This document shows, piece by piece, positions 1 through 39,164 of a stretch of 64,000 nucleotides of DNA. Position 1 is the stretch's first letter; every line of letters starts with the position of its first letter. The notes under the pieces were generated by a model that saw nothing but the letters and a program-made list of their open reading frames with translations, searched no databases and was not told the DNA's origin. Origin of the DNA: Candidatus Omnitrophota bacterium. GTDB lineage: Bacteria > Omnitrophota > Gorgyraeia > Aquiviventales > Aquiviventaceae. The DNA lies in assembly GCA_016209275.1 (NCBI GenBank), contig JACQWM010000004.1, positions 42,243 to 106,242 of the forward strand. The letters run 5' to 3'. A program made the position numbers and the translations under genes.

Positions 1-1061
1 AGCAGGGGTTTGAGCGCGTGCTGCTCTGTCTGGGGTATTTGCCCAAGGTGATCCAGGCGTATTGCGGCGATGGCCAGCGATTCGGGCTGTCGATCGAGTA
101 CAGCGTGTCGGATGTCGAGGATGACACCGGCCGGCGGCTGAAGGTAGCCGCACCTCGCATTGAGCAGTACTTCCTCTTGATGTACTGCGACAACTACTGG
201 CCGCTGCGCTTTGACGCGCTGTGGAAGTCCTATCTCGACACCGGGGCCGAGGCCATGCTCACGGTCTATCGCAACGAGGATGGGTACACGAAAGATAATG
301 TCCGCCTCAGCGAAGATGGCGCAGTGCTGTTCTACGACAAAAATCGGGCGACGCCGAGATTGCAGGGTGTCGATATCGGTTTCGGGCTGTTTCGACGCGA
401 GGCGCTGGAGCTCGTGCCAGATGAAAACGTGTCATTTGAGCGCGTGGTCTACCCAACACTCGTGGCGCGGCGCACGCTCTTCGCGTTTCCTACGTCGCAT
501 CGGTATTACAGTGTCAGTTCGCATGAGCGGCTCGGGTTGACTGAGCGTTTTTTGGCGCGAACGCCCGCGGTAATTCTCGACCGGGACGGGGTGCTGAATG
601 CGCGGCCACCTCAAGGGGAGTATGTCACGTCATGGGCGCAGTGGCGATGGCTGCCGGGGGCTCGTGAGGCGCTACGGCTGTTACACGACGCCGGCTATCA
701 GGTGATCGTGATCTCGAATCAGGCCGGTATTGCGCGCGGGGCGATGCGCGCCGAGGACGTGGAAACGATTCATCGGCGCATGCGCGAGGAGGCGGCCGTC
801 GCTGGCGGGAGCATCGATGCGATCTACTACTGCCCGCATCATTGGGATGACGGGTGTGCGTGCCGCAAGCCGAAACCGGGGATGTTCTTTTCGGCGCAGC
901 GGGAGTTTCACTTGGATTTGAGCCGAACACGGTTCTATGGGGATGATGAGCGCGATGGCCAAGCGGCGAAGGCTGCCGGCTGCCCCTTCACCATGATTTC
1001 AGCGTCGTCGACGCTGCTGGACGCGGTTCGGCAATTACGGGAGGATGCGGTCCATGGCTAA
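1..1061 (+). CDS. Bifunctional sugar-1-phosphate nucleotidyltransferase (HddC-like, 5'-truncated at window edge) fused to D,D-heptose 1,7-bisphosphate phosphatase GmhB (HAD-IIIA)
   Basis: The reading frame is open from nt 3 (QGFERVLLCLGYLP..., nucleotidyltransferase C-terminal region). The C-terminal half has the GmhB signature VILDRDGVLN...VISNQAGIARG...AIYYCPHHWDDGCACRKPKPGM. Stop at 1059-1061. Confidence 0.7.
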   Translation, partial: QGFERVLLCLGYLPKVIQAYCGDGQRFGLSIEYSVSDVEDDTGRRLKVAAPRIEQYFLLMYCDNYWPLRFDALWKSYLDTGAEAMLTVYRNEDGYTKDNVRLSEDGAVLFYDKNRATPRLQGVDIGFGLFRREALELVPDENVSFERVVYPTLVARRTLFAFPTSHRYYSVSSHERLGLTERFLARTPAVILDRDGVLNARPPQGEYVTSWAQWRWLPGAREALRLLHDAGYQVIVISNQAGIARGAMRAEDVETIHRRMREEAAVAGGSIDAIYYCPHHWDDGCACRKPKPGMFFSAQREFHLDLSRTRFYGDDERDGQAAKAAGCPFTMISASSTLLDAVRQLREDAVHG

Positions 1062-2103
1062 GCGCGTGCTGATCACAGGACACAACGGGTATGTCGGCTC
1101 GGTGATGGCGCCGCTGATGCTGGAGGCCGGCTATGAGGTGACGGGGTTTGACACGAACTACTACGCGGAGTGCACCCTCGTGCCTGACGCGGTGCGCGTG
1201 CCCGCCATCCAGAAGGACCTCCGGGATGTGGCGGCCCGCGATCTGGAAGGCTTTGACGCCATCGTGCATTTGGGTGCGCTCAGCAACGACCCGATCGGCA
1301 ACTTAAGCGCCGAGTGGACTGAGCAGATCAATTTCCGCGCGTCAGTCCGCTTGGCCGAGCTGGCCAAACAGGCCGGAGTTCCGCGGTTGCTGTTTTCATC
1401 CTCGTGCATCATGTACGGCATGTCAGAAGCGGCCGTGGTCACGGAAGCCTCCCCCCTGGATCCCAAGACAGAATACGCCAGGTCTAAGGTCAAGGCGGAG
1501 CAGGCCATCTCCCATCTGGCCGATGCGAATTTTTCGCCGGTCTTTTTGCGCAACGGCACGATCTACGGCCTCTCGCCGCGGATGCGGTTCGATACGGTGT
1601 TGAACAACCTCGTGGGGGCGGCGGTGACAACCGGCAAGATCACGCTGCAAAGCGACGGCAAACCGTGGCGGCCGGTGGCCCATGTGGAGGACATTTCGCG
1701 CGCCTTTCTCCATGTGCTGCAAGCTCCCCGCGAGGCGATCCACAATCAGGCGTTTAACAACGGCGAGAACCGGATGAATTATCAGGTGATCGAGATGGCG
1801 CGGATCGTGGCCGAGACCGTGCCGGGCGGCACGGTGGAGTGCTTGGCCGATCCCGGGGCTGATCAGCGCACGTACAAAACTGATTTCGGCAAGTTCGCGA
1901 GGGCATTTCCCGACTTCCAGTTTCGGTGGACGGTACGCGAGGGGGCCAAGGAGCTCTATGAGGCGTGTACCGCCATGAAGCTGACCCGAGAGGATTTCAT
2001 CGATCGGAAGTTCACCCGGCTGAAGTGGCTGCGCTATTTAATGGACAGCGGCCGGCTGGATGGCTCGCTACGCTGGAGAACGGCGGTGGAGGCAACGCGA
2101 TGA
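1054..2103 (+). CDS. NAD-dependent epimerase/dehydratase (extended SDR)
   Basis: N-terminal Rossmann motif VLITGHNGYVGS, ~350 aa. GGAGG sits 9 nt upstream of the ATG at 1054. An alternative ATG at 1045 is possible. Confidence 0.65.
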   Translation: MAKRVLITGHNGYVGSVMAPLMLEAGYEVTGFDTNYYAECTLVPDAVRVPAIQKDLRDVAARDLEGFDAIVHLGALSNDPIGNLSAEWTEQINFRASVRLAELAKQAGVPRLLFSSSCIMYGMSEAAVVTEASPLDPKTEYARSKVKAEQAISHLADANFSPVFLRNGTIYGLSPRMRFDTVLNNLVGAAVTTGKITLQSDGKPWRPVAHVEDISRAFLHVLQAPREAIHNQAFNNGENRMNYQVIEMARIVAETVPGGTVECLADPGADQRTYKTDFGKFARAFPDFQFRWTVREGAKELYEACTAMKLTREDFIDRKFTRLKWLRYLMDSGRLDGSLRWRTAVEATR

Positions 2104-2558
2104 GCCGAACCATACACGACGTGAAGATCATCCCGCTGCGGCAGGTGGTCGATGAGCGGGGCAAGATCATGCACATGCTCAAGGCGACTGACCCGCATTT
2201 CATCCGCTTCGGCGAGATCTATTTTTCATGCGCGTGGCCTGGGGCGATTAAGGCCTGGCACATCCACACATCCATGACGCTGCATAACGCGGTGATCTCG
2301 GGCCGGGCGAAACTCGTGATGTACGACGGCCGCAAAGGCTCGCCGAGCTACGGCACGATCCAGGAGGTCTTTCTCGGGGAAGACAACTACGTGCTGGTGC
2401 AAATTCCGCCCGGCATTACGAACGGGTATAAGGCGTACGGCGATCGGCTGGTCATCCTGGCGAATTGCGCCACCGAGCCGCATCGGCCCGAAGAGATTGT
2501 GCGCATCGATCCGTTCACGACGGAGATTCCCTACGACTGGGGGCTGCGGCATGGCTGA
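2100..2558 (+). CDS. RmlC-like cupin sugar 3,5-epimerase / ketoisomerase
   Basis: ~150 aa cupin fold (GEIYFSCAWPGAIKAWHIH...). The ATG overlaps the upstream TGA. Confidence 0.55.
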   Translation: MSRTIHDVKIIPLRQVVDERGKIMHMLKATDPHFIRFGEIYFSCAWPGAIKAWHIHTSMTLHNAVISGRAKLVMYDGRKGSPSYGTIQEVFLGEDNYVLVQIPPGITNGYKAYGDRLVILANCATEPHRPEEIVRIDPFTTEIPYDWGLRHG

Positions 2559-3618
2559 GCTTGTGAATGCGGAGTGCGGAGTGCGGAACGCGGAGTTCGT
2601 TGAGCACTACGCCACAAATCGACGGCCGCGATTAATCGTCACGCGCACACCGCTGCGTATTAGCTTTGCCGGCGGCGGAACGGATTTGCCGGATTTTTAT
2701 GCGCGCGAAGATGGCGCCGTGCTGAGCACGACGATTAACCACTACTTGTACGTGACGGTCAAGCCGCACGGGCGCTTGTTCAACGAAGGCTTTCGCCTCA
2801 ACTATTCCGAGACGGAGCATGTGGAGCGCTTGGATGAGGTGAAGAACCACATCGCCCGCGAATGCCTGAGGTTTTTGCGGATTGATCCGCCGCTGTACAT
2901 CAGCACGATCGCCGACGTGCCGGAGTTTTCCGGCTTAGGCTCCTCCAGCAGTTTCGCGGTCGGCCTGCTGCAAGCGCTCCATGCGCTTCGCGGCGAGCGG
3001 ATTGCCGCCGGACCGCTGGCCGAGGAAGCGGCTCATATTGAAATCGAGGTGCTGCGCCGGCCGATCGGCAAGCAGGATCACTACGCGGCCGCCTTCGGCG
3101 GCGTGAATGTGTTTTACTTTAAGGCCGACGGCCGGGTGACGGTGGAATCCCAGCACGTCGCCGAGGGGGTCTTGGATGAGATGTTTGCGCATTTACTGAT
3201 GTTTTGGACCGGCATCCGCCGGGATGCCAGCACGATCCTGAGCCTGCAGCAACAGCGGACCGAAACGAATCGTGAGTATTTGCAGCAGATGCGCGAGCAT
3301 GCGCGGCAGCTCCAAGCGCTCTTGCGCAACGGGTTTGACCCGGAGCGCTTTGGGCGCATCCTGGACGCCTCGTGGCATCTGAAGCGGCAGTTGACGAGCA
3401 ACATGACGAACGCGCGCATCGAAACGTGGTATCAGCGCGCCAAGCAGGCCGGGGCGTCGGGCGGCAAGATCTGCGGGGCCGGCGGCGGCGGCTTCCTCTT
3501 ATTCACCGCGCCACCGCAGCGGCAAGAGGCGGTCAGAGCCGCACTGGCCGATCTCACCGAGGTGCCGATTCGCTACGAGGCGCACGGCTCTCGGGTGCTG
3601 CTGCCCTCGATGGAGTAG
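2551..3618 (+). CDS. hddA: GHMP-family sugar kinase, D-glycero-D-manno-heptose 7-phosphate kinase (HddA-like)
   Basis: RTPLRISFAGGGTD, GLGSSSSFAVGLL and GGKICGAGGGGFLLF GHMP motifs. Start uncertain (an unusual ~35-aa N-terminal leader). Confidence 0.7.
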   Translation: MAELVNAECGVRNAEFVEHYATNRRPRLIVTRTPLRISFAGGGTDLPDFYAREDGAVLSTTINHYLYVTVKPHGRLFNEGFRLNYSETEHVERLDEVKNHIARECLRFLRIDPPLYISTIADVPEFSGLGSSSSFAVGLLQALHALRGERIAAGPLAEEAAHIEIEVLRRPIGKQDHYAAAFGGVNVFYFKADGRVTVESQHVAEGVLDEMFAHLLMFWTGIRRDASTILSLQQQRTETNREYLQQMREHARQLQALLRNGFDPERFGRILDASWHLKRQLTSNMTNARIETWYQRAKQAGASGGKICGAGGGGFLLFTAPPQRQEAVRAALADLTEVPIRYEAHGSRVLLPSME

Positions 3619-3621
3619 ACG

Positions 3622-4602
3622 ATGACCCAACGCATTTTGATCACCGGGGCCACCGGGATGATCGGCGCGGCCTTCATCCGGCGCGCGCTGGCGGATGGCC
3701 ATGAGGTGACCGTGATGGTCCGCCGCGAATCAAATCGTTTGCGGCTGATTGAGGTCGAATCGTCGCTGCGCTTGCACGACGGTGATGTCACCGATGCGCA
3801 GAGTGTTGCGAACGCTGTTGACGCGGCGCGTCCTGAGGTGGTCGTGCATTTGGCGAGCAGCTCGTTTAATCCTCCGACGATCAGCGCGCAGACGCATTGG
3901 GACGCGATCGGCAAGGGAACCCTGATCATGCTGGAGATCCTCCGATCATGGCCGCAGACGCGGTTCGTCATGACCGGCTCCGCCGCGGCGTACGGCAGTG
4001 GTGCCAGGCTCACCGAGACCCAACCGCTGCGGCCAGCCACCGCGCTCGGCGCGGCCAAAGCGACGGCGAGTATATGGATGCACACCTATGCTCGGCTCTA
4101 CGGGATCCAGGCTGTTGAGCTGAGACTGTTCATGCCGTATGGCCCGTGGGAGCATCCGCGACGGTTGATTCCGCAGACCATCCTCTCTGCGCTCGCCGGA
4201 GAAGAGCTCCGGACCACTGACGGCAGGCAGCAGCGGGATCTGGTGTATGTTGACGATGTGGTGGACGCACTCCTCTTGGCGGCCACGCGGCCGGTCGCCG
4301 CCGGGTCGGTTTTCAACATCGGCTCAGGGATCGGCACGCGGGTGCGCGATGTGGTCGACCGGATTCTTACGCTGATGGGCGATCCGGTGAACGTGATCCG
4401 AGGCGCCTTGCCGACGCGGCCGGATGAAATCCTTGAGATGTCGGCGGATATCACGGCGGCCAAAAGGAAACTCGGATGGCAGCCGCGCATCGGATTAGAC
4501 GAAGGACTGCGCCGGACGATCGCGTGGGTCACGGATCATCGCGAGCTCTTAGAGCACCTGGCACAGCCGCAAGCACCGATCGCCGCCGGCGGCGAACGAT
4601 GA
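3622..4602 (+). CDS. NAD-dependent epimerase/dehydratase (extended SDR)
   Basis: ILITGATGMIGAAF Rossmann motif. ~326 aa. Confidence 0.7.
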   Translation: MTQRILITGATGMIGAAFIRRALADGHEVTVMVRRESNRLRLIEVESSLRLHDGDVTDAQSVANAVDAARPEVVVHLASSSFNPPTISAQTHWDAIGKGTLIMLEILRSWPQTRFVMTGSAAAYGSGARLTETQPLRPATALGAAKATASIWMHTYARLYGIQAVELRLFMPYGPWEHPRRLIPQTILSALAGEELRTTDGRQQRDLVYVDDVVDALLLAATRPVAAGSVFNIGSGIGTRVRDVVDRILTLMGDPVNVIRGALPTRPDEILEMSADITAAKRKLGWQPRIGLDEGLRRTIAWVTDHRELLEHLAQPQAPIAAGGER

Positions 4603-5891
4603 CGGCGTGCGTGGTGTGCGAGTCAACGCGGGTGGAAGCATTTCTCGATTTTGGCACGACCGCATTGGCCAATAAATTTTTGACGAAGGAAGAATTATCG
4701 CGGGCGGAGCCTGCGTTTCCGTTACGCGTCGGGTTTTGTCATGGCTGCACGCATGTGCAGCTGATGGAGCGCGTCGCCCCCCGCGACATGTTCACTGACT
4801 ATCTGTATGTGTCATCGGCGTCGGAGACGCTGACGGCGCATCTCTTCGAACTCAGCGATGTCGTCGCACGGCGATTCCGCCTGGGCGCGGGCGACCTTGT
4901 CGTCGACATCGGCTGCAATGACGGCACGCTGTTGCGGGGATTCCAGCGCCACGGGGTGAAGACGCTCGGGGTGGATCCAGCCAAAAATCTTGCAGCACTA
5001 GCTGCGGAAAGCGGAATGGAGCGATTCGTGGGATTTTTTAATAGCCAAACCGCCACGCAGATCGCGCAGCGGTGGGGTCGAGCCTCAGCCATCACCGCCA
5101 CCAATACGTTCCCGCATGTTCCCGAGCTGCGTGATTTCATGGAGGGCATTCGCACCGCGTTAGCCCCCGGCGGGGTCTTTGTCATCGAAGCGCATTACCT
5201 GCTGGATCTGCTGGAGCAGGCAGCGTTCGATACCATCTATCACGAACACGTGTCGTACTGGGCCCTCGCACCCATGATGGGCCTCTTTGAGCGCTGCGGC
5301 ATGCAGGTCGTGGATGTCGAGCGGCTTCCGATCCATCATGGACAATTGCGTGTCTTCGTGCAGCGAACGGGTGAAGGGCGTGTGCAGCCGAGCGTTGCTC
5401 GACAGCTTGACGTCGAGCGGAGTGCTGGTTTGGATCGGTTGGCCACCTTCCGGGCGTTTGCCGATCGCACGCAGCAGATCAAGCGGCAGCTGAAGGAGCG
5501 GTTGAGGCAGCTGCGCGCCGAGAGCAAGCGCGTGGCCGGCTATGGGGCGCCGGCGAAAGGCAGCACGTTGTTAGGGTTTCTTGAGTTGGGACCGCAAGAG
5601 ATCGACTACATCGTGGATCGAAGCCCCCTCAAGCAGGGCCGGTTCACGCCCGGCTCGCACATTCCAATCGTGCCGGCAGAGCGCTTGCTTGAGGATCAGC
5701 CCGATGTGGTGGTCGTGCTCGCCTGGAATTTTCTCGACGAAATTATGGATCAGCAACAGGAATATCTGCGGCGTGGGGGGACATTTCTTCTTCCTGTGCC
5801 TGAGGTTCGCCTCATTACAGCCGAAAGCTCGCGCTTTCGGCATTCCGCGGCGACCCCGATGGTCACCGCTTCACGAGGAGAGGGTGCATGA
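4599..5891 (+). CDS. NDP-hexose C-methyltransferase (TylCIII-like class I SAM MTase with N-terminal Zn-ribbon)
   Basis: N-terminal CxxC...CxxC (ACVVCES...CHGCTH), SAM motif VVDIGCNDGTLL, and a C-terminal C-methyltransferase-type domain. ATGA overlap with the upstream gene. Confidence 0.6.
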   Translation: MTACVVCESTRVEAFLDFGTTALANKFLTKEELSRAEPAFPLRVGFCHGCTHVQLMERVAPRDMFTDYLYVSSASETLTAHLFELSDVVARRFRLGAGDLVVDIGCNDGTLLRGFQRHGVKTLGVDPAKNLAALAAESGMERFVGFFNSQTATQIAQRWGRASAITATNTFPHVPELRDFMEGIRTALAPGGVFVIEAHYLLDLLEQAAFDTIYHEHVSYWALAPMMGLFERCGMQVVDVERLPIHHGQLRVFVQRTGEGRVQPSVARQLDVERSAGLDRLATFRAFADRTQQIKRQLKERLRQLRAESKRVAGYGAPAKGSTLLGFLELGPQEIDYIVDRSPLKQGRFTPGSHIPIVPAERLLEDQPDVVVVLAWNFLDEIMDQQQEYLRRGGTFLLPVPEVRLITAESSRFRHSAATPMVTASRGEGA

Positions 5892-6892
5892 GCCACGAGT
5901 TGCACGTCGTTGAAATCAAGCAAATCAACCTGGAGATGGCCGGAGGCTGCAACCTCAAATGCCCCATGTGCCCCCAGTCGTTCGGCCGGGAAAAGGATTT
6001 CTTGAAGCGGCTCCCGCTGGAAGAATTCCGCAAGATCATCGACCAGGCGATTCCCGTGGGGTTGAAGTATGTCAACCTCAGCGGCTCCGGCGAACCGCTG
6101 CTGCACACCGGCTTGGAGGAGGCGGTCCGCTACCTCAATGAGCGGGGCATTACGAGCATGATCTACACCAATGGGATCCGCTTGACTCCAGAGCGTTTTG
6201 AGAGCCTCTGCCAGGCCGGGTTGACGATTTGCAAAGTGTCCTGCCAGGGATGGGATCGGGACAGCTACGCCAAATGGATGTCGATCGACGCGTTTGACCA
6301 AGTGCGGCAGCAGCTCAAAGCGTGCGTCGCACTGCTGAAGACGAAGGGGTATGCCACCTTTCTCCAAACCAACCATCTCGTGCATGACTATGACCAGCGC
6401 GAGCACCAGACCCAGCAGTACGTGACCAATTGGGTCGAGTATCTGGGCGTGCAGGCGGAAATCTGGCTGGAGCACAACTGGTCCGGCCAGTATAAAGACG
6501 CGATCCCTCGGGAGAATATTTTTCAGGACCGGCCCAAGCGCACGTGCGGACGCCCGATGGGCGGGGTCTTGGAGATTCGCGCCGGAGGACTGGGCGGCAA
6601 ATCGGGTGCTGTCGTGCCGTGCCCGTTCGTGCTGGGGCAGGACTCCAAAGCGGTCCTGGGGCATACGCAAGACACGCCCCTCATGGACATCGTCAACGGC
6701 GAGCCGATGCTCGCCTTGCGATCGGCGCACGTGCGCGGAGATTTCGATTCGGTGGACTACTGCCGCAACTGCGATCAATTGCTAGAGGTCAAAGAGTCGC
6801 TGGTGTGGACCAACATCCCCGGTCGCACGTATGGGCCGAGCCGAATCTCAGGAATTAATTACTTAAATCTGTCCGCGGCGCCATCGCCATGA
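5888..6892 (+). CDS. Radical SAM protein (possible SPASM/twitch C-terminal Cys cluster)
   Basis: CNLKCPMC (Cx3Cx2C) near the N-terminus. Additional Cys residues near the C-terminus (CGRPMG...CPFVLG...CRNC). Confidence 0.7.
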   Translation: MSHELHVVEIKQINLEMAGGCNLKCPMCPQSFGREKDFLKRLPLEEFRKIIDQAIPVGLKYVNLSGSGEPLLHTGLEEAVRYLNERGITSMIYTNGIRLTPERFESLCQAGLTICKVSCQGWDRDSYAKWMSIDAFDQVRQQLKACVALLKTKGYATFLQTNHLVHDYDQREHQTQQYVTNWVEYLGVQAEIWLEHNWSGQYKDAIPRENIFQDRPKRTCGRPMGGVLEIRAGGLGGKSGAVVPCPFVLGQDSKAVLGHTQDTPLMDIVNGEPMLALRSAHVRGDFDSVDYCRNCDQLLEVKESLVWTNIPGRTYGPSRISGINYLNLSAAPSP

Positions 6893-7458
6893 CGGGTCTT
6901 GCCTTCCCAACGACAGAGGTTGCGCCGATCACTACGGATCGGTTGGCGCTGCGCATGATATCAGCCGCTGATGTGACGCCGGTGTATGTTGCGTCGATGA
7001 ACGATCCTGAGGTGGTGGGGTTGACCGAGGCGCGGCACGTGGTGTGGGACCATCAGCGGGTGGCGCAGTTCATTGAGCGATCCAACGTTGAAGGGGTGTC
7101 AACTTTGGTGGGGATCTTCCTGAAAGACACCGGACGCCATATCGGCAATCTGCGGTTGTTCAATTTCCATCCCGTGCATCGGCGGGCGGAGCTGAGCTTC
7201 GTCATTTTTGACAAGACCCAATGGTCGAAAGGCTATGCCACAGAGGCGGTCGGCGCGCTCTGCCGCTACGCGTTTGAGACGATGCGTTTGCACCGCATCC
7301 ACGCGGACTATTACGCGACCAACCACGCCTCAGCCCGGTTGTTCCAGAAGGCGGGGTTCCAGGTCGAGGGCGTCTATCGAGGACATTTCTTCGCTGACGG
7401 ACGATATGTGGATTCCATTCGAGTGGCAACACTGAATCCGACTGAGCAGCGCATATGA
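6889..7458 (+). CDS. GNAT-family N-acetyltransferase
   Basis: RimL/RimJ-like motif pattern (HRAELSFVIFD...GYATEAV...ARLFQKAGF). 189 aa. Confidence 0.65.
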   Translation: MTGLAFPTTEVAPITTDRLALRMISAADVTPVYVASMNDPEVVGLTEARHVVWDHQRVAQFIERSNVEGVSTLVGIFLKDTGRHIGNLRLFNFHPVHRRAELSFVIFDKTQWSKGYATEAVGALCRYAFETMRLHRIHADYYATNHASARLFQKAGFQVEGVYRGHFFADGRYVDSIRVATLNPTEQRI

Positions 7459-8618
7459 CGCGCCCATTCATCCCATCGGCGGGTCCTTCGATGACGGAGC
7501 ACGAAGTCCAGTTAGTGGCTCAGGCCGCCCGGGATGGCTGGTATCTTGGCATGATCAAGTACATTGAAGAATTTGAACGGCGATTCTCTGAGTACACCGG
7601 GATGACCTACTGCTTGGCCACGAATAGCTGCACGGCGGCCATTCACCTGGCGATGCTCGCCTTGCGTCTCGGGCCAGGGGATGAGGTGATCGTGCCGGAT
7701 ATCACCTGGGTCGCCTCGGCAGCCCCGGTGTGCTATGTGGGTGCTCGGCCTGTCTTGGTGGATATCGACCCGGTGACGTGGTGCATCTCGCCCGAGGCGT
7801 TTGAGCGCGCGATCACCCGGCGGACGAAAGCCGTTGTGGTCGTTGGCCTGCTGGGTAACATGCCGGAGATGGATGCGATTCGGACGATGGCCGCCAAGCG
7901 CGGGATTCCGATTATCGAGGACGCGGCTGAGTCGGCCGGAGCCACGTACCGCGGCAAAAAAGCCGGCACCTTCGGCACGATCAACGTCTTCAGCTTTAAT
8001 GGCACGAAGCTGATGGTCACCGGCGAAGGCGGCATGTTCGCCACGAATGACAAGCGCTTGTACCTGCGCGCCAAAGGGCTCGCGCACCATGGCTTGCTGA
8101 TGCAGGGCAAGCGATCAAAATTCTACTGGTCCTATGAGCTGGGGTACAAATACAAGATGACCAATGTCCAGGCGGCCCTGGGGTTGGCGCAATTGAGCCG
8201 GATCGACGAGCTGGTGGCGAAACGCCGGCAAAACTTTTTCTGGTATCACGAGCGGCTGAAGAGTGTCGAGGGTCTGCAGCTGAACCAGGAAGGCCCGCAT
8301 GTGAACAGCACGTTTTGGATCGTGACCGGGATTGTGAGCCCGCGCTACCGGATAAAGAAGGAAGCGCTGGTCAGGAAGCTGGTTGAGCGGAAGATCGGCG
8401 GGCGCCCGTTTTTCTATCCGATCAGCGCGATGCCGCCGTTTACCGCGTACGGCCGGGGCCGATCGATGCGCAAGGCTAACCCGGTGTCGTATCGGATCTC
8501 CCCGTACGGCATCTGCCTGCCATCGTCCGCCGCGCTCACCGAAGCGGATGTGGACTATGTCTGCGAGCAGCTTATGGAGATTTTAACGGCGCGAACCGCG
8601 AAAGCGGTCCTGGTATGA
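7455..8618 (+). CDS. DegT/DnrJ/EryC1/StrS-family PLP-dependent sugar aminotransferase
   Basis: Characteristic N-terminal region and the Lys-region FSFNGTKLMVTGEGGM. Confidence 0.8.
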   Translation: MTRPFIPSAGPSMTEHEVQLVAQAARDGWYLGMIKYIEEFERRFSEYTGMTYCLATNSCTAAIHLAMLALRLGPGDEVIVPDITWVASAAPVCYVGARPVLVDIDPVTWCISPEAFERAITRRTKAVVVVGLLGNMPEMDAIRTMAAKRGIPIIEDAAESAGATYRGKKAGTFGTINVFSFNGTKLMVTGEGGMFATNDKRLYLRAKGLAHHGLLMQGKRSKFYWSYELGYKYKMTNVQAALGLAQLSRIDELVAKRRQNFFWYHERLKSVEGLQLNQEGPHVNSTFWIVTGIVSPRYRIKKEALVRKLVERKIGGRPFFYPISAMPPFTAYGRGRSMRKANPVSYRISPYGICLPSSAALTEADVDYVCEQLMEILTARTAKAVLV

Positions 8619-9679
8619 GTAGCACTGAATCACTGACCGTGCTGATCCCGACCTACAACCGGCATCCCCAGCTGCTGCGGCTGCTGCGGTATGCCGCGAC
8701 GGTCGGCTGCCCCTACCCGATGCGTGTGCTCGACTCCAGCAGCGATCCGCTGACATCAGTGGAGCTGCGCCGCGCGCTGGAAGCAGATCGTATCCGGCAT
8801 GAGCGATGGGCGCCGTCGACACCACCCATGCAAAAGCTGCATGAGGGCTTAGCGCATGTGGCCTCGCCGTATGTGGTGGTGTGGGCGGATGATGATTTTC
8901 TCGTGCCCCGCGCGCTGACCGCCGGTGTGAGTTTTTTAGACGCGCACCCGGACTACAGCGTCGTGCATGGCCGCAGCTATCTTCTGACCGTGGAACAAGT
9001 CAATGGCCATGGCGTGCCGTCACGCCAGCCGTATGGGCAGCGGGCCATCACCGCCGCGACCGCGGGTGAAAGGCTTGACGATCATCTGCGCGGCTACACC
9101 GTGCTCAACTACGCCATCCACCGCGCGGAGCGTTTGGCGCGGAATGTTGCGCAGTGCGTGGAGCGCGGCTTCGGCTACAACTGGGGCGAGATCGCGCTGG
9201 GGAGCCTGGACGCCATCCAGGGCAAGGTGGGAGTGTTGGACCAGCTGTATCTTGTGAAGGAAGGGCATCAAGGGCCGGATGCGTGGTGGACATGGTTGTG
9301 CGCAGGTGCTGCAACTCGGCCGAGCGATGTGTTTGACTGGGTGACAGAGGCGAATTTTCCCTCGGCCTATGCGTCGTTCCGCGAGTGTGTGGCGGCCGCC
9401 CTCTCCCAGGAAGACCGCCTGACCATGGATGAGGCGCGGGACATCGTGAAGGCGGCCTTCTGGTCGTATGCGGCGAGGGCGCTGACGGAAAAGCGGCGCG
9501 CGCATGACGGCATGACACATCGCGATGCGTCGATGCGATGGCGCCGCGCGGCCCGCCGAATCCCCGGCCTTCGAGGAATCGTCCGCGCGGTGCGCGGCGG
9601 CAAGGGCGGGGCCGAGCCCGATTGGCTGCCGATCTATCAGGCGATGACCACGAAAGACGTTGAGATGGTGGCTGCATGA
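8615..9679 (+). CDS. GT-A (GT2-like) glycosyltransferase-like protein, paralogue 1 of 3
   Basis: LIPTYNR N-terminus and an acidic WADDDFLVP motif. Its C-terminal Arg-rich helix is shared with the next two genes. Confidence 0.5.
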   Translation: MSSTESLTVLIPTYNRHPQLLRLLRYAATVGCPYPMRVLDSSSDPLTSVELRRALEADRIRHERWAPSTPPMQKLHEGLAHVASPYVVVWADDDFLVPRALTAGVSFLDAHPDYSVVHGRSYLLTVEQVNGHGVPSRQPYGQRAITAATAGERLDDHLRGYTVLNYAIHRAERLARNVAQCVERGFGYNWGEIALGSLDAIQGKVGVLDQLYLVKEGHQGPDAWWTWLCAGAATRPSDVFDWVTEANFPSAYASFRECVAAALSQEDRLTMDEARDIVKAAFWSYAARALTEKRRAHDGMTHRDASMRWRRAARRIPGLRGIVRAVRGGKGGAEPDWLPIYQAMTTKDVEMVAA

Positions 9680-10794
9680 GCGAATGGCTCACCCTGTGCG
9701 TGCCGACGATTAATCGCCCGGCGTTCCTCGGGCGGCTGCTGCGGTACTACGCGGCGGCGTCTGCGCCGTATCGAATCGCCATTGCCGATTCCAGCGACCC
9801 GGTGCGCGCCGAGCAGAATCAGCAGATCATCCGCCGGCTGGCGGGCCGGTTGCACGTGGTGTACCGGCAGTACCCAGGGATGAGCGTGGGCGCATGTTTT
9901 GAAGCCATGAATCAGACGCTGGACACACCGTACTGCGCGCTGCTGGGCGATGATGACTTCCTCTGCCCGCCAGGCTTGGAGCGATGCGTGGAGTTTCTCG
10001 AGGGACATCCTGACTACGGGGCGGCGCACGGGATCGGGCTGCACTTCCAAACTGAAGGCGGCCATCCTCACGGACCGATCGGGAGGGTCGGGCCGTACCC
10101 CCAAGCGGTCCTCGAAACCGACACCGGAGCCCAACGGCTGGGCGAGTTTGTGATGAAAAGCTTGTACGTCCTGATCTATTCGGTCCATCGCGCCGCGATC
10201 TGGCGATCGATGTTCACCGGGGTGGGCGCGATGGAAGACATCAAGACGCAAAACGGATTCAAGAACGAAGTGCTCGCGACGTGCGTCTCTGCGGTCCGCG
10301 GCAAAGTCAAAGCGCTCGATGGCCTCTACTTGTTTCGCCAGGTCCATCAGCGCAACACGCCAGTGCCCCATGTCTACGAGTGGCTGACCGATCCGGAATG
10401 GTTTCCTTCGTATCGCATTTTTGAGGATCGTGTCAGCGAAGAGCTCATGCGGCAAGATCAGTTGCCGATGGAGCAGGCGCGCCAGATCGTCCGAGACGTG
10501 TTTTGGTCCTACTTGGCCAAGGTCATGATGGGGGTACGGGAGAAAGAGCTTCGCCGTCCGAGCCGCCAGGGGACGCTTTCGTCTCTGCGAAGAGCGGCTC
10601 GAGCGATTCCCTGGCTCCGCCGCAGCGGCCGGGCTGCGCGATCCATGTTTGACCGCTATCAGCGCCCGTGGTCGCTGTCCGCCCTCTTGCATCCGTCATC
10701 ACCGTACCACACCGATTTCATGGCGGTGGCGCGGGCCGTGGAGGACCTCAGGCAGACGGTTGAACAGCCGTCAGGGGAGGCGGTGGCGGTCTGA
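9676..10794 (+). CDS. GT-A (GT2-like) glycosyltransferase-like protein, paralogue 2 of 3
   Basis: LCVPTINR and LGDDDFLCP motifs. Clearly paralogous to 8615-9679 and 10794-11870. Confidence 0.5.
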   Translation: MSEWLTLCVPTINRPAFLGRLLRYYAAASAPYRIAIADSSDPVRAEQNQQIIRRLAGRLHVVYRQYPGMSVGACFEAMNQTLDTPYCALLGDDDFLCPPGLERCVEFLEGHPDYGAAHGIGLHFQTEGGHPHGPIGRVGPYPQAVLETDTGAQRLGEFVMKSLYVLIYSVHRAAIWRSMFTGVGAMEDIKTQNGFKNEVLATCVSAVRGKVKALDGLYLFRQVHQRNTPVPHVYEWLTDPEWFPSYRIFEDRVSEELMRQDQLPMEQARQIVRDVFWSYLAKVMMGVREKELRRPSRQGTLSSLRRAARAIPWLRRSGRAARSMFDRYQRPWSLSALLHPSSPYHTDFMAVARAVEDLRQTVEQPSGEAVAV

Positions 10795-11870
10795 TGTTGA
10801 CGTTGTGCGTCCCGACCAAGGATCGATCAGACTTTGTGGGCCGCCTCCTGCGCTACTGCGCGGAGGTCCGCATGCCGTATCGGGTGATGATCGGCGATGC
10901 CAGCCATCCTGAGCATGTCCAGCGCACGCAAGCGACGGTCAGGTCGGTGCAGTCGCTGGTCAATGTTGAGCATCACCTCTGCCCGGGATTGAGCTCCTGC
11001 GCGACCCTGGAATCGCTGAGCCGGCGCATCACGACGCCGTATAGCGTCTTTTTGGGCGATGATGATTTCCTCTGCCCGAGCGGGCTTAAGCGTTGTGCCG
11101 AGTTTTTGGACGCGCATCCAGAGTATAGTGCCGCGCACGGCGAGGGGCTGCGGTTTCAGACCGAGGGCAATGGCGCGCAGGGTGCGATTGGTGTCGTGGC
11201 CTCGTATCCGCAAGCCGTGATTTCCGCATCAACCGGAGCGCAACGCCTGAAGGAATTTTTCACGGCGAGCCTCTACACCTTGCTGTATTCGGTGCACCGC
11301 ACGGAAACGTGGCAAGCGATGTTTCAGGGGCTCTCATCGCTTGAGGGCGTGCAGAATCGCAACATGTTTAAAGATGAGCTGATCGCCGTGTCGGTGTCGG
11401 TGATCCGCGGCAAAGTCAAAGCGCTCCCCAGGCTCTCGCTCATCCACCAGGTGCATGAGGACAGCTATCGATTTCCGCATGTGTATGATTGGATCGCCCA
11501 CCCGTCGTGGTATCCGTCGTTCCAGGCGTTCCGCCAACGCCTTATCGATGAGCTCATCCGGCAAGATGGGATCAGCGCCGAGGACGCGAGCCGGGTAGTG
11601 GCCCGCGTGTTTTGGCCGTATCTCGCGCGCATCATCGGCGATGAGTGGCGCAAGCAGCGCCGCGGAGCCCCGGCTGCGCCCTCGCGGTTACGAGTGGCGG
11701 CAGCGCGGATCCCGGCGGCTCGGCAGGCCTGGCGGGCGGTTCACCAGACGTTTCAGCGCTATCACGATCCGCACTCGCTGGCCGCCTTGCTGCGGCCTTC
11801 CTCGCGGTACGCGGCGGATTTTCTTCCGGTGTATCGAGTGGCGGTGGCCACAGAATGGAATGGAGCGTAG
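10794..11870 (+). CDS. GT-A (GT2-like) glycosyltransferase-like protein, paralogue 3 of 3
   Basis: LCVPTKDR and LGDDDFLCP motifs. Highly similar to paralogue 2 along its full length. Confidence 0.5.
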   Translation: MLTLCVPTKDRSDFVGRLLRYCAEVRMPYRVMIGDASHPEHVQRTQATVRSVQSLVNVEHHLCPGLSSCATLESLSRRITTPYSVFLGDDDFLCPSGLKRCAEFLDAHPEYSAAHGEGLRFQTEGNGAQGAIGVVASYPQAVISASTGAQRLKEFFTASLYTLLYSVHRTETWQAMFQGLSSLEGVQNRNMFKDELIAVSVSVIRGKVKALPRLSLIHQVHEDSYRFPHVYDWIAHPSWYPSFQAFRQRLIDELIRQDGISAEDASRVVARVFWPYLARIIGDEWRKQRRGAPAAPSRLRVAAARIPAARQAWRAVHQTFQRYHDPHSLAALLRPSSRYAADFLPVYRVAVATEWNGA

Positions 11871-12585: not shown

Positions 12586-13573
12586 GGGGTCTGAGGGCGC
12601 GCGCGTGCTGCTCATCGGCTGCGGCGAGTTGGGCAGCCGCCACCTGCAGGCGATTGCGAGCCTGCCGCAGGTGACAGACATCGACGTGGTCGATCCGAGG
12701 CCAGAGGCCTTGGCCTTGGGACGCAAGCGGCTGGGGGAACTTGCTCCTGGGAATCCATCGACCTCGATCCGTTGGCTCTCATCGTTGGCAGAGGCCACGC
12801 CGGCAGGAGCGCTGTGCATCGTGGCGACGCAAGCCGAGGGCCGGTGCGAGCTCATTCGTCAGGTGGCCCAAACGCTTGGCTACACGAACTTCCTGCTTGA
12901 AAAAATCGTCGCGCAATCGCTGCGCGCCATCGAAGAGCTGGTGGATTTTTTGAGCACACGGCGCTGTGCGGCATGGGTGAATTGCCAAACTCGGGCTTAC
13001 CCGTTTCATCAGCGCGTCAAGCAGCGGCTGGAGGCTTCCTCGCCCATCATGATGACGGTGACCGGAGGCAACCTCGGGCTCGTGACGAATGGCATCCATA
13101 ACGCGGACTTATTTGCGTTCTATACCGGGGCCACTTGCATCGAGCCGGCCGGGGCGTCCATTGATCCGGTGCTCCATCGAACCAAGCGCGGGCAGTATGA
13201 TCTCAGCGGCACGTTGCAGGGACGGACCGAAGACGGCAGCCGGTTCACGCTGGCCTACGCGGCCGATCATGCGCTGTCTGAGCAGATCACGATCGTCACT
13301 CGATCGTATCGATGCGTCGTAGACCATATCCAGCGATGGGCGGTGGAGAGCGACGCCGCCTCTCGCTGGTCATGGCGCAGCGTGCCGTTTGAGGATCAGA
13401 TCATGGTCAGCCAGATGACGCAGCGATTTGCCGCTGACATCTTGGCGCAAAGACGGTGCGCGCTGCCGACGCTTGAGGAATCGTTGGTGGCGCACCGGTT
13501 GATCCTCGGCGAGCTGCAGCCGCATTTCAGCCGCCTTCTGGAGCGGGATCTTGAGCTGGTTCCGGTGACCTGA
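12575..13573 (+). CDS. Gfo/Idh/MocA-like NAD(P)-dependent oxidoreductase
   Basis: N-terminal Rossmann RVLLIGCGELGSRHLQ...DVVD. Confidence 0.5.
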   Translation: MKPKGSEGARVLLIGCGELGSRHLQAIASLPQVTDIDVVDPRPEALALGRKRLGELAPGNPSTSIRWLSSLAEATPAGALCIVATQAEGRCELIRQVAQTLGYTNFLLEKIVAQSLRAIEELVDFLSTRRCAAWVNCQTRAYPFHQRVKQRLEASSPIMMTVTGGNLGLVTNGIHNADLFAFYTGATCIEPAGASIDPVLHRTKRGQYDLSGTLQGRTEDGSRFTLAYAADHALSEQITIVTRSYRCVVDHIQRWAVESDAASRWSWRSVPFEDQIMVSQMTQRFAADILAQRRCALPTLEESLVAHRLILGELQPHFSRLLERDLELVPVT

Positions 13574-14604
13574 TGAGCATGCCATTGGACGCGCAGCCGC
13601 TCGTGTCCTCTGCCGAGCTTGCCGCCGCGCTTGCCGCAACCGACCTTCGCGGTAACACGGCCACGGTGATCGGCTATGGCACCATGGGCCAGCAGTTTGT
13701 CCAAGCGCTGCGAGCCCTTCACCTGCGCCGCGTGCGGGTCTGCTCTCGGTCGCCGCAGTCGATCGAGCCGCTGAAGCCGCTCGAGGGTCTTGAAGCCATC
13801 AGCGGAGGATTCGAGCATCTGCAGTGCCGTCCCCAACCGGATGAGTTAGGCATCATTGCCACGCCGACCGCGTTCTTGGCGGCTGCGGCCGACCGGCTCG
13901 CCGCTTTAGGTTTTCGGCGGCTGCTCATCGAAAAACCGATCGCGCTGCGGTCGGATGAAATCGAGCGGCTGGCGGATCGGCTGGAGCGCCAGGGCGTGGA
14001 TGCGGCATGCGCGTACAACCGGGTGAGCTATCCATCGTTCCATGAGGCGCGCGCACGGGCGGCACAGGACGGTGGGATCACCTCGTGCACCTACACATTC
14101 ACCGAGATGATCAAACCGGATTGGCCCCAGCGGTTTCCTGCCGAGGAGCTGCGGCGATGGGGGATTGCCAACAGCCTGCACGTGATGAGCATGGCCCACG
14201 GGCTGATCGGTTGGCCATCGACGTGGAACGGGCAGCGCGCCGGATCATTGCCCTGGCATCCGACGGGTGCAGTATTTGTCGGCTCCGGTGTCTCGGTGCG
14301 CGGGATCCCGTTTAGCTACCATGCAGATTGGGGCTCCACCGGCCGCTGGTCGGTGGAACTGCATACGGCGGTCTCATCGTATCGGTTCTGCCCGCTCGAG
14401 CAGTGTTTCAGAAGGACATCAGCGCTCGGGGTCTGGGAGGAAGTGCCGGTGGCGGCATTCGCCCCTGAGATCAAAGTCGGGATTGTTGAGGAAGTCGCAG
14501 CCATGCTGGATCCCGGCATCAGAGCTGGCGTTCCTCTGATGTCCTTGCGCGATGCCGCCGTATTGACGCGGTTTGGCGAATCGGTCTTTGGCTACGATGA
14601 TTGA
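13573..14604 (+). CDS. Putative NAD(P)-binding oxidoreductase (Gfo/Idh/MocA-like N-terminus)
   Basis: ATVIGYGTMGQQF Rossmann-like N-terminus. TGATG coupling with the upstream gene. Confidence 0.4.
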   Translation: MSMPLDAQPLVSSAELAAALAATDLRGNTATVIGYGTMGQQFVQALRALHLRRVRVCSRSPQSIEPLKPLEGLEAISGGFEHLQCRPQPDELGIIATPTAFLAAAADRLAALGFRRLLIEKPIALRSDEIERLADRLERQGVDAACAYNRVSYPSFHEARARAAQDGGITSCTYTFTEMIKPDWPQRFPAEELRRWGIANSLHVMSMAHGLIGWPSTWNGQRAGSLPWHPTGAVFVGSGVSVRGIPFSYHADWGSTGRWSVELHTAVSSYRFCPLEQCFRRTSALGVWEEVPVAAFAPEIKVGIVEEVAAMLDPGIRAGVPLMSLRDAAVLTRFGESVFGYDD

Positions 14605-15661
14605 GAGAGAACCAGCCGAGCTGATGGCGGGCATCGAGCAGGATCTGGCCGCCTACCGGGAGTGCGGATTGCTTGAGCATCGCGGGGATCGCCTGACATC
14701 GGAATGGGCGCTGCAGGTGAAAGAGCAGCCCGGGCGGTTCATCCGACCTGATGGCACGATCGACACGGAGCGGCTGCGCAATTTCAGGAAGCTGCTGATC
14801 TTTCTGAAAGATGTCCCGTCCTTCTCGCTGCAGTGGTGGAACCGCTGGACGCTTCTCGGCGGAGGACGGCGAGGGTCGGTGAAGATGCTTCGTGAAAATC
14901 TCGCCCTCCTCAAAACCCATGGCTACGACGCCTTGCTGAAAAAACATCCGTGCTCGATGGTGGGCCACCCGTACGTCTTTCGCACCGACGGTTACCAGTT
15001 CACGTATCGCTGGTTCAGGCACATTTACTTTCTTGGCCTGCTGCAACGGGTCTTAGGCAGCCGTCTCAGCGGGGAGCTCACCCCGCCCCATGGGGCGGGG
15101 TTCACCGAACTTTCCATCGGCGGCGGCTATGGCGTGTTTTCCTATGTGCTCAAGCGCGAATATCCGGCGGCCCGGTCAATCCTTGTGGATTTTCCAGAGC
15201 AGCTGCTCTTGGCTCGCTACTTTCTCGGACGAAGTTTTCCTCAGGCTCGGATCGCCGGCATGGCGCAGATCGCTCAGTTGCCGTCCATCTCGCGCGAGTT
15301 CATCCAGGCGCATGATTTTGTGCTCGTCCCATGCCAGTATTACCCTCGGCTTGAGGGCGGGAGTGTGGATCTCGTCACCAACTTTATTTCCTTCGGTGAA
15401 ATGACGCCTGAGTGGTTCAGGTTCTATGTGGAGGCCCCGCCGTTTACATCGGCGAAGTGGTTCTTTACCGTCAACCGCGTGCAATCGCGTCCGGTGTACG
15501 ACAGCGACCTGACGATCCTTGACTATCCGATTTGGGATGCGGCGAAACGGCTGCACTTCGGGCTGTGTCCGGCCCTCTCCTCATATTTTACCCAGCGGGG
15601 AGTGTTCTTGATGGAGCGGACGGCGCACGCGCCGTTTTTCGAATACCTCGGCGAGAAGTAA
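14597..15661 (+). CDS. Hypothetical protein, possible sugar O-methyltransferase-like (GxGxG motif)
   Basis: ELSIGGGYGVFSYVL...ILVDFPEQ resembles a class I MTase motif I and acidic motif II. Otherwise unrecognised. Confidence 0.3.
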   Translation: MIEREPAELMAGIEQDLAAYRECGLLEHRGDRLTSEWALQVKEQPGRFIRPDGTIDTERLRNFRKLLIFLKDVPSFSLQWWNRWTLLGGGRRGSVKMLRENLALLKTHGYDALLKKHPCSMVGHPYVFRTDGYQFTYRWFRHIYFLGLLQRVLGSRLSGELTPPHGAGFTELSIGGGYGVFSYVLKREYPAARSILVDFPEQLLLARYFLGRSFPQARIAGMAQIAQLPSISREFIQAHDFVLVPCQYYPRLEGGSVDLVTNFISFGEMTPEWFRFYVEAPPFTSAKWFFTVNRVQSRPVYDSDLTILDYPIWDAAKRLHFGLCPALSSYFTQRGVFLMERTAHAPFFEYLGEK

Positions 15662-15666
15662 GCGAA

Positions 15667-16668: not shown

Positions 16669-17393
16669 CGGTCATCCCGGCGCGAACCGGCTCAAAAGAG
16701 CTGCCGGGGAAAAACGTGCGGCCCTTTGCCGGGGTGCCGTTGATCGCCCACACGATTCTCTTTGCCAAAGGGTGCCCCCAGGTTACGCGGTGCATCGTGT
16801 CAACGGATTCATCGTCAATCGCCGACGTCGCGCGGCAGTTCGGGGCCGAGGTCCCGTTTCTGCGTCCGGAGGCGTTGGCGCAAGATGACACTCCGCTGTG
16901 GCCGGTTCTTCGGCACGCGTTGGCGATGGCGGAAGCCGAGGACGGCCAGCCGTATGACGAATTACTGCTGCTGGATCCGACCTCGCCGGCACGAACGATC
17001 GAGGATGTGACCGGAGCGTTGCGCCGGCTTCATGAGGCTCCGTCGGCCGATGGTGTGGTTAGCGTCTCGCGTCCGGAGTTCAATCCGGTCTGGCACTGCG
17101 TGGTGGAGCAGGACGGATGGATGGCGGACCTGATCCCTGGCGGCGGCCGAATCACCCGCCGGCAAGACGCTCCGGTGGTGTATCGGATTAACGGCGCGCT
17201 CTACATTTGGCGCACGAGATTTCTTCGAGCCGCCCAGCCGTCCTGGCGGACGGGACGCCATGTGATCTATGAGATTCCGGAGTCTCGGGCGATTTCCATC
17301 GACACCTTGGAGGCGTTTGAGCGGGCCGAGCTGCTGGTGAAAAGCGGGATGATTGCCTTCCCGTGGATGCAAGGACAGCATGCCAGCCGCTAA
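16644..17393 (+). CDS. neuA: Acylneuraminate (nonulosonate) cytidylyltransferase, NeuA/LegF-like
   Basis: RLAVIPARTGSKELPGKN N-terminal CMP-transferase signature. ~249 aa. Confidence 0.75.
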   Translation: MASAIKRLAVIPARTGSKELPGKNVRPFAGVPLIAHTILFAKGCPQVTRCIVSTDSSSIADVARQFGAEVPFLRPEALAQDDTPLWPVLRHALAMAEAEDGQPYDELLLLDPTSPARTIEDVTGALRRLHEAPSADGVVSVSRPEFNPVWHCVVEQDGWMADLIPGGGRITRRQDAPVVYRINGALYIWRTRFLRAAQPSWRTGRHVIYEIPESRAISIDTLEAFERAELLVKSGMIAFPWMQGQHASR

Positions 17394-17439
17394 GCGCGCG
17401 AGACGCACGCGACGTCCCATGCGATCTATCGCGGAGTTG

Positions 17440-24877: not shown

Positions 24878-24890
24878 GGGAGGAGAGCGC

Positions 24891-39148: not shown

Positions 39149-39164
39149 CGAAAGGAGTCAGGGC

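Follow-up and report, generated by a model that had tools for sequence, protein, structure and literature searches.

A predicted nucleotide-heptose tailoring operon with a TylCIII-type C-methyltransferase and an uncharacterised radical SAM protein in a Candidatus Omnitrophota bacterium

Locus information

The window analysed here is a stretch of 64,000 nucleotides from a Candidatus Omnitrophota bacterium (contig JACQWM010000004.1, positions 42,243 to 106,242 of the forward strand), and its subject is a block of six translationally coupled + strand genes that runs from the ATG of a first short-chain dehydrogenase/reductase (SDR) gene at 1054 to the stop codon of a radical S-adenosylmethionine (SAM) gene at 6892. 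A sequence-only reading of this DNA had described the block as two SDRs, an RmlC-like cupin, a C-methyltransferase and a radical SAM protein devoted to heptose tailoring, and Pfam searches placed all of these genes on the + strand within the same limits. The reading had left out the GHMP kinase gene inside the block (2551-3618) and had missed the GNAT, DegT and glycosyltransferase genes that follow. Successive genes overlap by 4 to 8 nt between start and stop codons over 1054-8618, with a 3-nt gap at 3618/3622 as the sole exception, and therefore form a single translationally coupled operon. The DNA upstream of the window edge was judged from the close relatives L041 and L042, two of the homologous loci compared below. 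The features of the operon are as follows.

1-1061, + strand: 3' part of a fusion of a nucleotidyltransferase (NTase) with a GmhB-like HAD phosphatase, about 47 codons of which are cut off by the window edge
1054-2103, + strand: SDR1, an extended SDR (Pfam Epimerase PF01370, E 5e-42)
2100-2558, + strand: RmlC-like cupin of 152 aa (dTDP_sugar_isom PF00908, E 6.6e-12)
2551-3618, + strand: HddA-like GHMP sugar kinase (GHMP_kinases_N and GHMP_kinases_C)
3622-4602, + strand: SDR2, an extended SDR (Pfam Epimerase, E 3e-51)
4599-5891, + strand: nucleoside diphosphate (NDP)-4-keto-sugar 3-C-methyltransferase of the TylCIII/TcaB9/MtmC/KijD1 type (PF08421, PF13489, PF08484)
5888-6892, + strand: radical SAM enzyme of 334 aa with a twitch-like C-terminal domain (Radical_SAM PF04055 and SPASM PF13186)
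6889-7458, + strand: GNAT N-acetyltransferase, accessory (PF13302, E 4.5e-27)
7455-8618, + strand: DegT/DnrJ/EryC1 sugar aminotransferase, LegC/PseC-like, accessory (PF01041, E 1e-112)
8615-9679, 9676-10794 and 10794-11870, + strand: three paralogous TIGR04440-type glycosyltransferases

The C-methyltransferase

The methyltransferase has a three-domain architecture composed of the Methyltransf_13 zinc domain (PF08421, 71 bits, E 9e-20), PF13489 (63.5 bits) and Methyltransf_14 (PF08484, 187 bits, E 2.5e-55), and it is related over its full length to MtmC, TcaB9 and KijD1, with matches in the PDB (4rv9, E 1.3e-91; 3ndi, E 1.5e-90). The CxxC...CxxC zinc site is conserved in the alignment, as are the sites corresponding to Y76, H181, Y222, E224 and H225 of TcaB9, the catalytic residues of that enzyme, and the assignment to the TylCIII/TcaB9 type made in the sequence-only reading is borne out. 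With both the zinc cysteines and the catalytic tyrosine, histidine and glutamate positions kept, a C-methyl branch can soundly be predicted beside a 4-keto group, in line with the methylated sugar foreseen earlier. TylCIII, TcaB9, MtmC and KijD1 use dTDP-4-keto-6-deoxyhexoses in antibiotic pathways, whereas the enzyme described here is encoded in a heptose operon that contains no 4,6-dehydratase gene, and this points to an NDP-4-keto-heptose as its predicted substrate. We know of no published description of a 3-C-methyl-heptose.

Probable heptose activation genes

The reading frame of the first gene is open from base 3, and its product shares 73 % identity with the L041 protein (399 aa) over residues 48-398 of the latter. 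The sequence contains the DxD motif DRDGVLN and a CPH...CAC loop, and the protein reaches 164.3 bits against the NCBIfam GmhB equivalog NF006506 (cut-off 178). The kinase has HddA NF049969 as its top NCBIfam match, with 148 bits where the cut-off is 600, and is a candidate heptose-7-phosphate 1-kinase. A GmhA-type SIS_2 gene lies immediately 5' of the series NTase-HAD, SDR1, cupin and kinase in L007, L041 and L042, and the window itself contains a SIS_2 gene at 34327-34959. The NTase-GmhB-like fusion, the HddA-like kinase and the SIS_2 gene of the relatives uphold the description of the block as concerned with heptose, and make an NDP-heptose the likely sugar of the operon.

SDRs and cupin

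The top PDB match of SDR1 is 6vo6/6vo8 (E 1.9e-28, residues 1-312); we take 6vo6 to be the structure of Cj1427. SDR1 carries the YxxxK motif as YARSK and has SSSCIMYG in place of the Thr-Asp-Glu signature of dehydratases, and its homologues in related loci are 39-78 % identical. From the YxxxK motif, the missing dehydratase pair and the 6vo6 match, SDR1 is predicted to be a Cj1427-type NDP-heptose C4-dehydrogenase. In PMC10680097, Cj1427 is described as a GDP-heptose C4-dehydrogenase that supplies epimerases and reductases. The cupin matches 3ejk, a "dTDP sugar isomerase", most closely in the PDB (E 6e-31), is 77-85 % identical to its counterparts in L007, L041 and L042, and is probably a C3/C5 epimerase or an isomerase acting on a 4-keto sugar.

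SDR2 has LGAAK at the YxxxK site and also GSAAAYG, with neither the Asp/Glu pair nor the tyrosine. In the 120 homologues that share 47 % identity or more, the tyrosine site is occupied by leucine in 79, phenylalanine in 21, tyrosine in 17, valine in two and asparagine in one, while the lysine of the motif is invariant and the NAD-binding motif is kept; since most of these proteins have lost the tyrosine, its replacement is a family trait and not an error. SDR2 and the C-methyltransferase move together across loci as a cassette, and SDR2 is presumed, with some uncertainty, to be the C4 ketoreductase partner of the methyltransferase. The proposal that tyrosine-less SDR2 proteins mark loci that use a DegT/GNAT route was ruled out by L043, which has a tyrosine-bearing SDR2 together with a GNAT-DegT fusion, and in the few loci compared the loss of the tyrosine shows no correlation with DegT/GNAT genes. 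A 4,6-dehydratase signature (Thr-Asp-Glu or Thr/Glu, in either case with Tyr/Lys) is missing in both SDR1 and SDR2, and SDR1 is closest to 6vo6, so the suggestion that the sugar might be deoxygenated finds no support in either protein.

Radical SAM protein

The product of 5888-6892 belongs to the radical SAM superfamily (Radical_SAM PF04055, 70.6 bits, cut-off 29.5), with the CX3CX2C motif at C21/C25/C28 invariant among 60 homologues and a conserved GGE-like motif, SGSGEP, at residues 65-70. Additional C-terminal cysteines had been noted from the sequence, and the alignment resolves them as C220, C245, C292 and C295, all invariant or nearly so in the same 60 homologues. The SPASM model PF13186 gives 31.3 bits (cut-off 21.5), with only its C-terminal part (14-67) covered. 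The two-cluster motif of SPASM proteins (CX9-15GX4C ... CX2CX5CX3C ... C) contains seven or eight cysteines, and four are too few for it but fit one twitch-type auxiliary cluster; the alignment suggests that C220, C245, C292 and C295 are its putative ligands. The protein has both features of the twitch type, a shortened SPASM-like domain with four cysteines and a BtrN-like fold.

AlphaFold, given 60 sequences, produced a confident model (pLDDT 94.5), and a Foldseek search with it returned BtrN first (E 7e-13, TM score 0.78 on BtrN) and BlsE next. The nearest structures, those of BtrN, BlsE and DesII, are of enzymes that act on sugars or nucleotides. No curated NCBIfam family cut-off was reached, the top match scoring 67.9 bits against 380; the scores for BlsE (TIGR04466, 50.2 against 400) and DesII (TIGR04426, 29.8 against 450) were far too low, the cut-offs of PqqE, ScmF, StsB, MoaA, viperin and the tungsten-cofactor maturase were likewise unmet, and every match was limited to the N-terminal core at about residues 9-170.

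A word-indexed search found 1005 proteins of the family at E <= 1e-5; among 1.84 billion representatives of clusters at 50 % identity, 222 homologues reach 1e-30 and about 20 exceed 200 bits. Homologues at least 52 % identical to the protein are here called class A, and those 42-47 % identical class B. Cysteines other than the cluster ligands are kept clade by clade, C108 and C119 in class A, to which they are specific, and C90 and C246 in class B/C. C119 lies in the loop after strand 4; the sister clade has C90, C246 and A119 where class A has S90, P246 and C119. An argument that the family has no extra conserved cysteine, and must accordingly be a dehydrogenase and not an epimerase, was ruled out by this class-resolved alignment. 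Plasmid homologues from Brachyspira and Methylobacterium are only 23-35 % identical and too distant to inform. On sequence grounds the protein is a member of no described family, and represents a compact, widespread and uncharacterised one, which occurs in uncultured and marine lineages of high abundance, namely Omnitrophota, Nitrospina, SAR11-type Pelagibacteraceae, marine Rhodospirillaceae, Prochlorococcus and a cyanophage.

Genomic contexts of the radical SAM family

Sugar genes neighbour the radical SAM gene in more than 25 loci, and sugar enzymes are present in all class A and class B loci. Class A proteins occur in Nitrospina, Nitrosomonadaceae, Omnitrophota, a MarineAlpha5 alphaproteobacterium, Pelagibacteraceae and a deltaproteobacterium. 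A GHMP kinase gene is found in all class A loci, where it is the most constant gene near the radical SAM gene, and the longer loci usually add an NTase(-HAD), SDR1, the cupin and a second SDR. The closest relatives share a constant frame in which the SIS, NTase-HAD, SDR1, cupin and kinase genes precede the radical SAM gene and a glycosyltransferase gene follows it. In L041, L042 and L007 the genes for SIS_2, NTase-HAD, SDR1, cupin, GHMP kinase, a variable cassette and the radical SAM protein occur in the same order with 64-85 % identity, and TIGR04440-type glycosyltransferase homologues lie 3' of the radical SAM gene in L007, L008, L041 and L042. The radical SAM proteins themselves are 83-84 % (L041), 75-76 % (L042), 71-73 % (L007) and 72 % (L044) identical to that of the window.

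The genes between the kinase and the radical SAM protein, and those after it, are less constant. The cassette consists of SDR2 and the C-methyltransferase in the window, L041, L042 and L043; of a different SDR and a gene resembling ribulose-phosphate 3-epimerase (RPE) in L007; and of SDR2, the C-methyltransferase, two more SDRs and a thiamine diphosphate-dependent enzyme in L044 (1-17053). GNAT and DegT are separate genes in the window, make up one fused protein of 573 aa in L042 and of 602 aa in L043, and are missing after the radical SAM gene in L041, where no aminotransferase gene was found within 10 kb downstream. Because the radical SAM protein remains 71-84 % identical while the cassette and the GNAT/DegT genes vary, its link is to the heptose core rather than to C-methylation or amination, which suggests a target position outside C3/C4. 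A functional coupling of radical SAM enzyme and C-methyltransferase does not hold up, given the L007 homologue with the RPE-like gene in place of the methyltransferase and the sister clade in operons for Kdo (3-deoxy-D-manno-octulosonate).

Class B proteins come mostly from marine Rhodospirillaceae and their relatives (loci L014-L035), and in 16 loci Kdo-pathway genes lie immediately beside the radical SAM gene. The complete order kdsA, a stand-alone CBS protein, kdsB, kdsC, the radical SAM gene and a TPR protein of 565-600 aa is seen in about eight of the class B loci, L023 (7435-12719) being an example; L025, from the cultured species Caenispirillum bisanense, has kdsA, the CBS gene and the radical SAM gene. 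KdsA, KdsB and KdsC of these operons pass the NCBIfam cut-offs, and the operons contain no reductase or aminotransferase gene. This context suggests that Kdo, or a glycan that contains it, undergoes a radical modification. Further homologues occur in Wzm/Wzt and KpsC/S-type capsule loci and in a Prochlorococcus genome.

Several individual loci have features of their own. L042 (8736-14223) contains two tandem radical SAM paralogues, 75 % and 83 % identical to the protein of the window, with a 44-codon remnant of a C-methyltransferase gene between them, and the GNAT-DegT fusion of L043 lies at 6165-7973. In L044 the radical SAM gene is followed by genes for a second Methyltransf_14 protein, a cytochrome P450, a GT2 glycosyltransferase and a B12-binding radical SAM protein, and the gene set of this locus may hint that the heptose is branched by two carbons or oxidised further. 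B12-binding radical SAM genes also occur near the block in L001, L007 and L041. A 37 % identical homologue, annotated as hypothetical, is encoded by the Kyanoviridae cyanophage C48C1 (L040, OQ984149.1, 98839-99825) near genes for a glycosyltransferase and a Nol-like carbamoyltransferase. In the cyanophage S-SCSM2R an aminotransferase-like gene adjoins a radical SAM gene, and kdsA and kdsB are also present (PMC12801897).

Proposed pathway and radical SAM chemistry

Taken together, we consider it rather probable that the operon forms the tailoring half of a pathway to a modified nucleotide-activated heptose for a cell-surface glycan of this Omnitrophota bacterium, and that the radical SAM enzyme acts on the sugar nucleotide. 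By homology and synteny, a GmhA-type isomerase, placed just upstream of the window by analogy with the relatives, would act with the HddA-like kinase and the NTase-GmhB fusion to give NDP-D-glycero-D-manno-heptose. SDR1 would then oxidise C4 as Cj1427 does, the TcaB9-type methyltransferase would add a methyl group at C3 of the 4-keto sugar, and the cupin would epimerise an adjacent centre, after which the 4-keto group would either be reduced by SDR2, if that protein is active, or be transaminated and N-acetylated by the DegT and GNAT proteins. The finished sugar, probably GDP-linked, would be used by the TIGR04440-type glycosyltransferases encoded at 8615-11870, which are its probable users (the first paralogue reaches 142 bits against a TIGR04440 cut-off of 70).

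The radical SAM enzyme would act on the sugar nucleotide away from C3/C4, for example at C2 or in the C6-C7 side chain, where the 5'-deoxyadenosyl radical would take the carbinol hydrogen from the target carbon. NeoN and HygY are cysteine-dependent sugar epimerases in which a cysteine returns the hydrogen. Our preferred outcome is comparable, a redox-neutral epimerisation or isomerisation that requires no partner enzyme and takes place where keto-enol chemistry cannot reach, and in which the hydrogen would be given back by a conserved cysteine that is not a cluster ligand; in class A this would be C119, with C108 also a candidate, and in class B/C the candidate donors are C246 and C90. A self-contained reaction is favoured because L041 and the Kdo operons contain no enzyme that would process a keto or deoxy-keto product. 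If the substrate is a sugar, we would tentatively rank an epimerase or isomerase first, a dehydrogenase after it as a doubtful second and a dehydratase or lyase as an unlikely third, leaving the remainder to other chemistry.

A broader form of this proposal is possible but speculative: the family may constitute a new nucleotide-sugar tailoring class for higher envelope sugars, with an NDP-heptose clade and a sister clade acting on Kdo or CMP-Kdo, both attacking the glycerol-type exocyclic side chain that the two sugars have in common, or else a centre not activated for keto-enol chemistry. The exocyclic diol common to heptose and Kdo is an attractive target, although we only infer its role. 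Such a class would imply heptose and Kdo stereoisomers or derivatives that are chemically undescribed, 3-C-methyl-heptose among them.

Several points weigh against the pathway set out above. The HddA and GmhB matches are both below their equivalog cut-offs (148 against 600 and 164 against 178 bits), so that the heptose assignment leans mainly on the synteny of the SIS_2 gene, and the nucleotide carried by the heptose may be GDP or another. The reduction step is uncertain because SDR2 lacks the catalytic tyrosine. The site of attack, at C2 or in the side chain, we infer purely from the variability of the cassette and the Kdo sister clade, and literature searches turned up no biochemical data or paper on this radical SAM family; a paper on Campylobacter jejuni HS:19 lists only an unrelated radical SAM gene of a capsule locus. 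Finally, the DegT gene lies immediately 3' of the radical SAM gene in L001, L002 and L009 and also in the truncated L003, one gene away in the window and in L042, and two genes away in L043, and this closeness would also fit a dehydrogenase followed by a transaminase.

Alternative roles of the radical SAM protein

The main rival, and a serious one even though we regard it as unlikely, is accordingly a radical dehydrogenase like BtrN or SpeY, which would convert a hydroxyl group inaccessible to SDRs into a ketone and pass an electron to the auxiliary cluster, the DegT and GNAT proteins then giving the heptose an acetamido group at a second position. Besides the proximity of DegT genes, the cysteine spacing C-x24-C-x46-C-x2-C resembles the auxiliary-cluster motif of BtrN, and the GNAT-DegT fusions point to an acetylated amine. 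Against these stand the absence of an aminotransferase gene within 10 kb downstream in L041, whose radical SAM protein is 84 % identical, and the absence of a transaminase or reductase partner in the Kdo-operon clade. SDR1 would moreover already provide a 4-keto group for DegT, and the DegT proteins of L001 and L009 are just 31-33 % identical to that of the window, which argues that DegT and the radical SAM protein are not a co-inherited pair.

A dehydratase or lyase of the AprD4 or DesII kind, which would eliminate either a hydroxyl or an amino group (at the C6-C7 diol, for example, or following amination by DegT) to leave a deoxy-keto heptose, appears improbable; it corresponds to the possible deoxygenation raised in the sequence-only reading. 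The adjacency of the DegT and radical SAM genes is reminiscent of DesI/DesII, and with the classical 4,6-dehydratase missing any deoxygenation would require another route. The DesII score, however, is a small fraction of its cut-off (29.8 against 450 bits), and a deoxy-keto product would require a reductase or transaminase, neither of which is present in L041 or the Kdo operons.

Slightly less probable again is that the target of the enzyme is a 2-keto-3-deoxy ulosonic acid, either Kdo or the legionaminic-acid-like sugar whose genes lie 10 kb downstream, or else the glycan once assembled, in which case the position after the heptose genes would reflect only the packing of the operon. The sister clade does lie within kdsA-kdsB-kdsC operons, and NeuB and CTP_transf_3 genes occur near the radical SAM gene in L004-6, L010, L012, L042 and the window. 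Yet the class A gene is translationally coupled to heptose genes and keeps its position in L007, L041, L042, L043 and L044, no NeuB gene was found in the examined flanks of L001, L009, L007 and L041, and the two clades differ at sites probably near the active site (C119/A119, P246/C246), which makes different substrates plausible.

The peptide-maturase family with a cognate precursor that could have overturned the sugar reading was not found, and a SPASM-type peptide or protein maturase, whether a maturase of ribosomally synthesised and post-translationally modified peptides (RiPPs) or a protein like the anaerobic sulfatase-maturating enzyme (anSME), is essentially excluded by NCBIfam matches 5- to 12-fold under the family cut-offs and confined to the N-terminal core, by four C-terminal cysteines where SPASM proteins have seven or more, by 4-nt overlaps on both sides (5888-5891 and 6889-6892) that leave no space for a precursor gene, by the sugar-gene setting of the family and by the lack of a sulfatase gene nearby.

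Comparison with known systems

The radical SAM protein shares with BtrN (2-deoxy-scyllo-inosamine dehydrogenase of butirosin biosynthesis; PDB 4m7t), SpeY, HygY and NeoN a partial TIM-barrel core followed by a short four-cysteine domain for one auxiliary cluster, and with these twitch enzymes a carbohydrate substrate, predicted in its own case. A DegT-family aminotransferase gene lies nearby, as does that of BtrS in the butirosin pathway. It differs from BtrN in being about 80 residues longer and in having sequence similarity to it only in the N-terminal core (E 2e-6), and from the twitch enzymes at large in that its family occurs in cell-surface glycan operons of many phyla and not in aminoglycoside clusters, with a nucleotide-activated heptose as the likely substrate and Kdo in the sister clade. 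BlsE (cytosylglucuronate decarboxylase, PDB 7vob) is a decarboxylase, and the operon contains none of the uronic-acid-forming genes that such an enzyme needs; DesII (TDP-4-amino-4,6-dideoxyglucose deaminase, PDB 8hzv) is set apart by the NCBIfam score of 30 bits. To our knowledge, sugar-acting radical SAM enzymes come almost only from antibiotic pathways (BtrN, DesII, NeoN, HygY, AprD4, BlsE).

The operon resembles the GDP-heptose pathway of C. jejuni in its predicted order of steps, with GmhA, HddA, GmhB and HddC for activation and then oxidation at C4, epimerisation by a cupin and reduction at C4, and differs from it in the fusion of NTase and phosphatase and in the missing catalytic tyrosine of SDR2. 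The C. jejuni toolkit (Cj1427, Cj1430-type epimerases and Cj1428-type reductases), as described in PMC10680097, has no C-methyltransferase, heptose aminotransferase/GNAT or radical SAM enzyme, and to this described set the operon would add C-methylation, amination with acetylation and a radical SAM step.

This well-conserved family is found in operons for primary cell-surface glycans in many phyla, and its two clean contexts, heptose and Kdo, provide testable substrate candidates. A characterised member would extend the heptose-modification toolkit, which is now without radical, C-methyl and amino steps, and would probably uncover new envelope sugars of ecologically abundant bacteria. The block itself predicts a 3-C-methyl-heptose and reveals a subfamily of extended SDRs without the catalytic tyrosine.

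Accessory genes and the wider glycan island

The DegT protein scores 274 bits against LegC and 259 bits against PseC in NCBIfam, both under cut-off. All supported genes of the window lie on the + strand, GC skew is non-negative throughout, and the entire window is one + strand glycan island. Long - strand open reading frames, such as 5750-6778 and 9637-10692, lie across + strand genes that have support, and since they have no family support they are seen as artefacts of the high G+C content (62 %).

A legionaminic-acid-like nonulosonate gene set occupies 13573-28133 and encodes GFO/IDH/MocA oxidoreductases, CTP_transf_3, a short-chain dehydrogenase, NeuB with a SAF domain, a UDP-GlcNAc 2-epimerase-type hydrolase, a PglD-like acetyltransferase, a fused HisF/HisH-like amidotransferase, a PtmE-like CBS-NTP-transferase, a 4,6-dehydratase-like SDR and a second DegT protein. 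A second sugar pathway is suggested by genes at 30208-32322, 34327-34959, 37187-39148, 39114-39884 and 42745-43599, which encode a 704-aa protein with an N-terminal GmhB-like HAD domain, the SIS_2 isomerase mentioned above, a carbamoyltransferase, a transaldolase/FSA-type aldolase and an HpcH/HpaI aldolase, and among which several methyltransferase and GDSL esterase genes are interspersed. The island also holds AsnB and RmlD homologues, many methyltransferases and several glycosyltransferases, and near its end, at 60521-62620, a second radical SAM protein of 699 aa is encoded, in which Pfam recognises the Radical_SAM core only.

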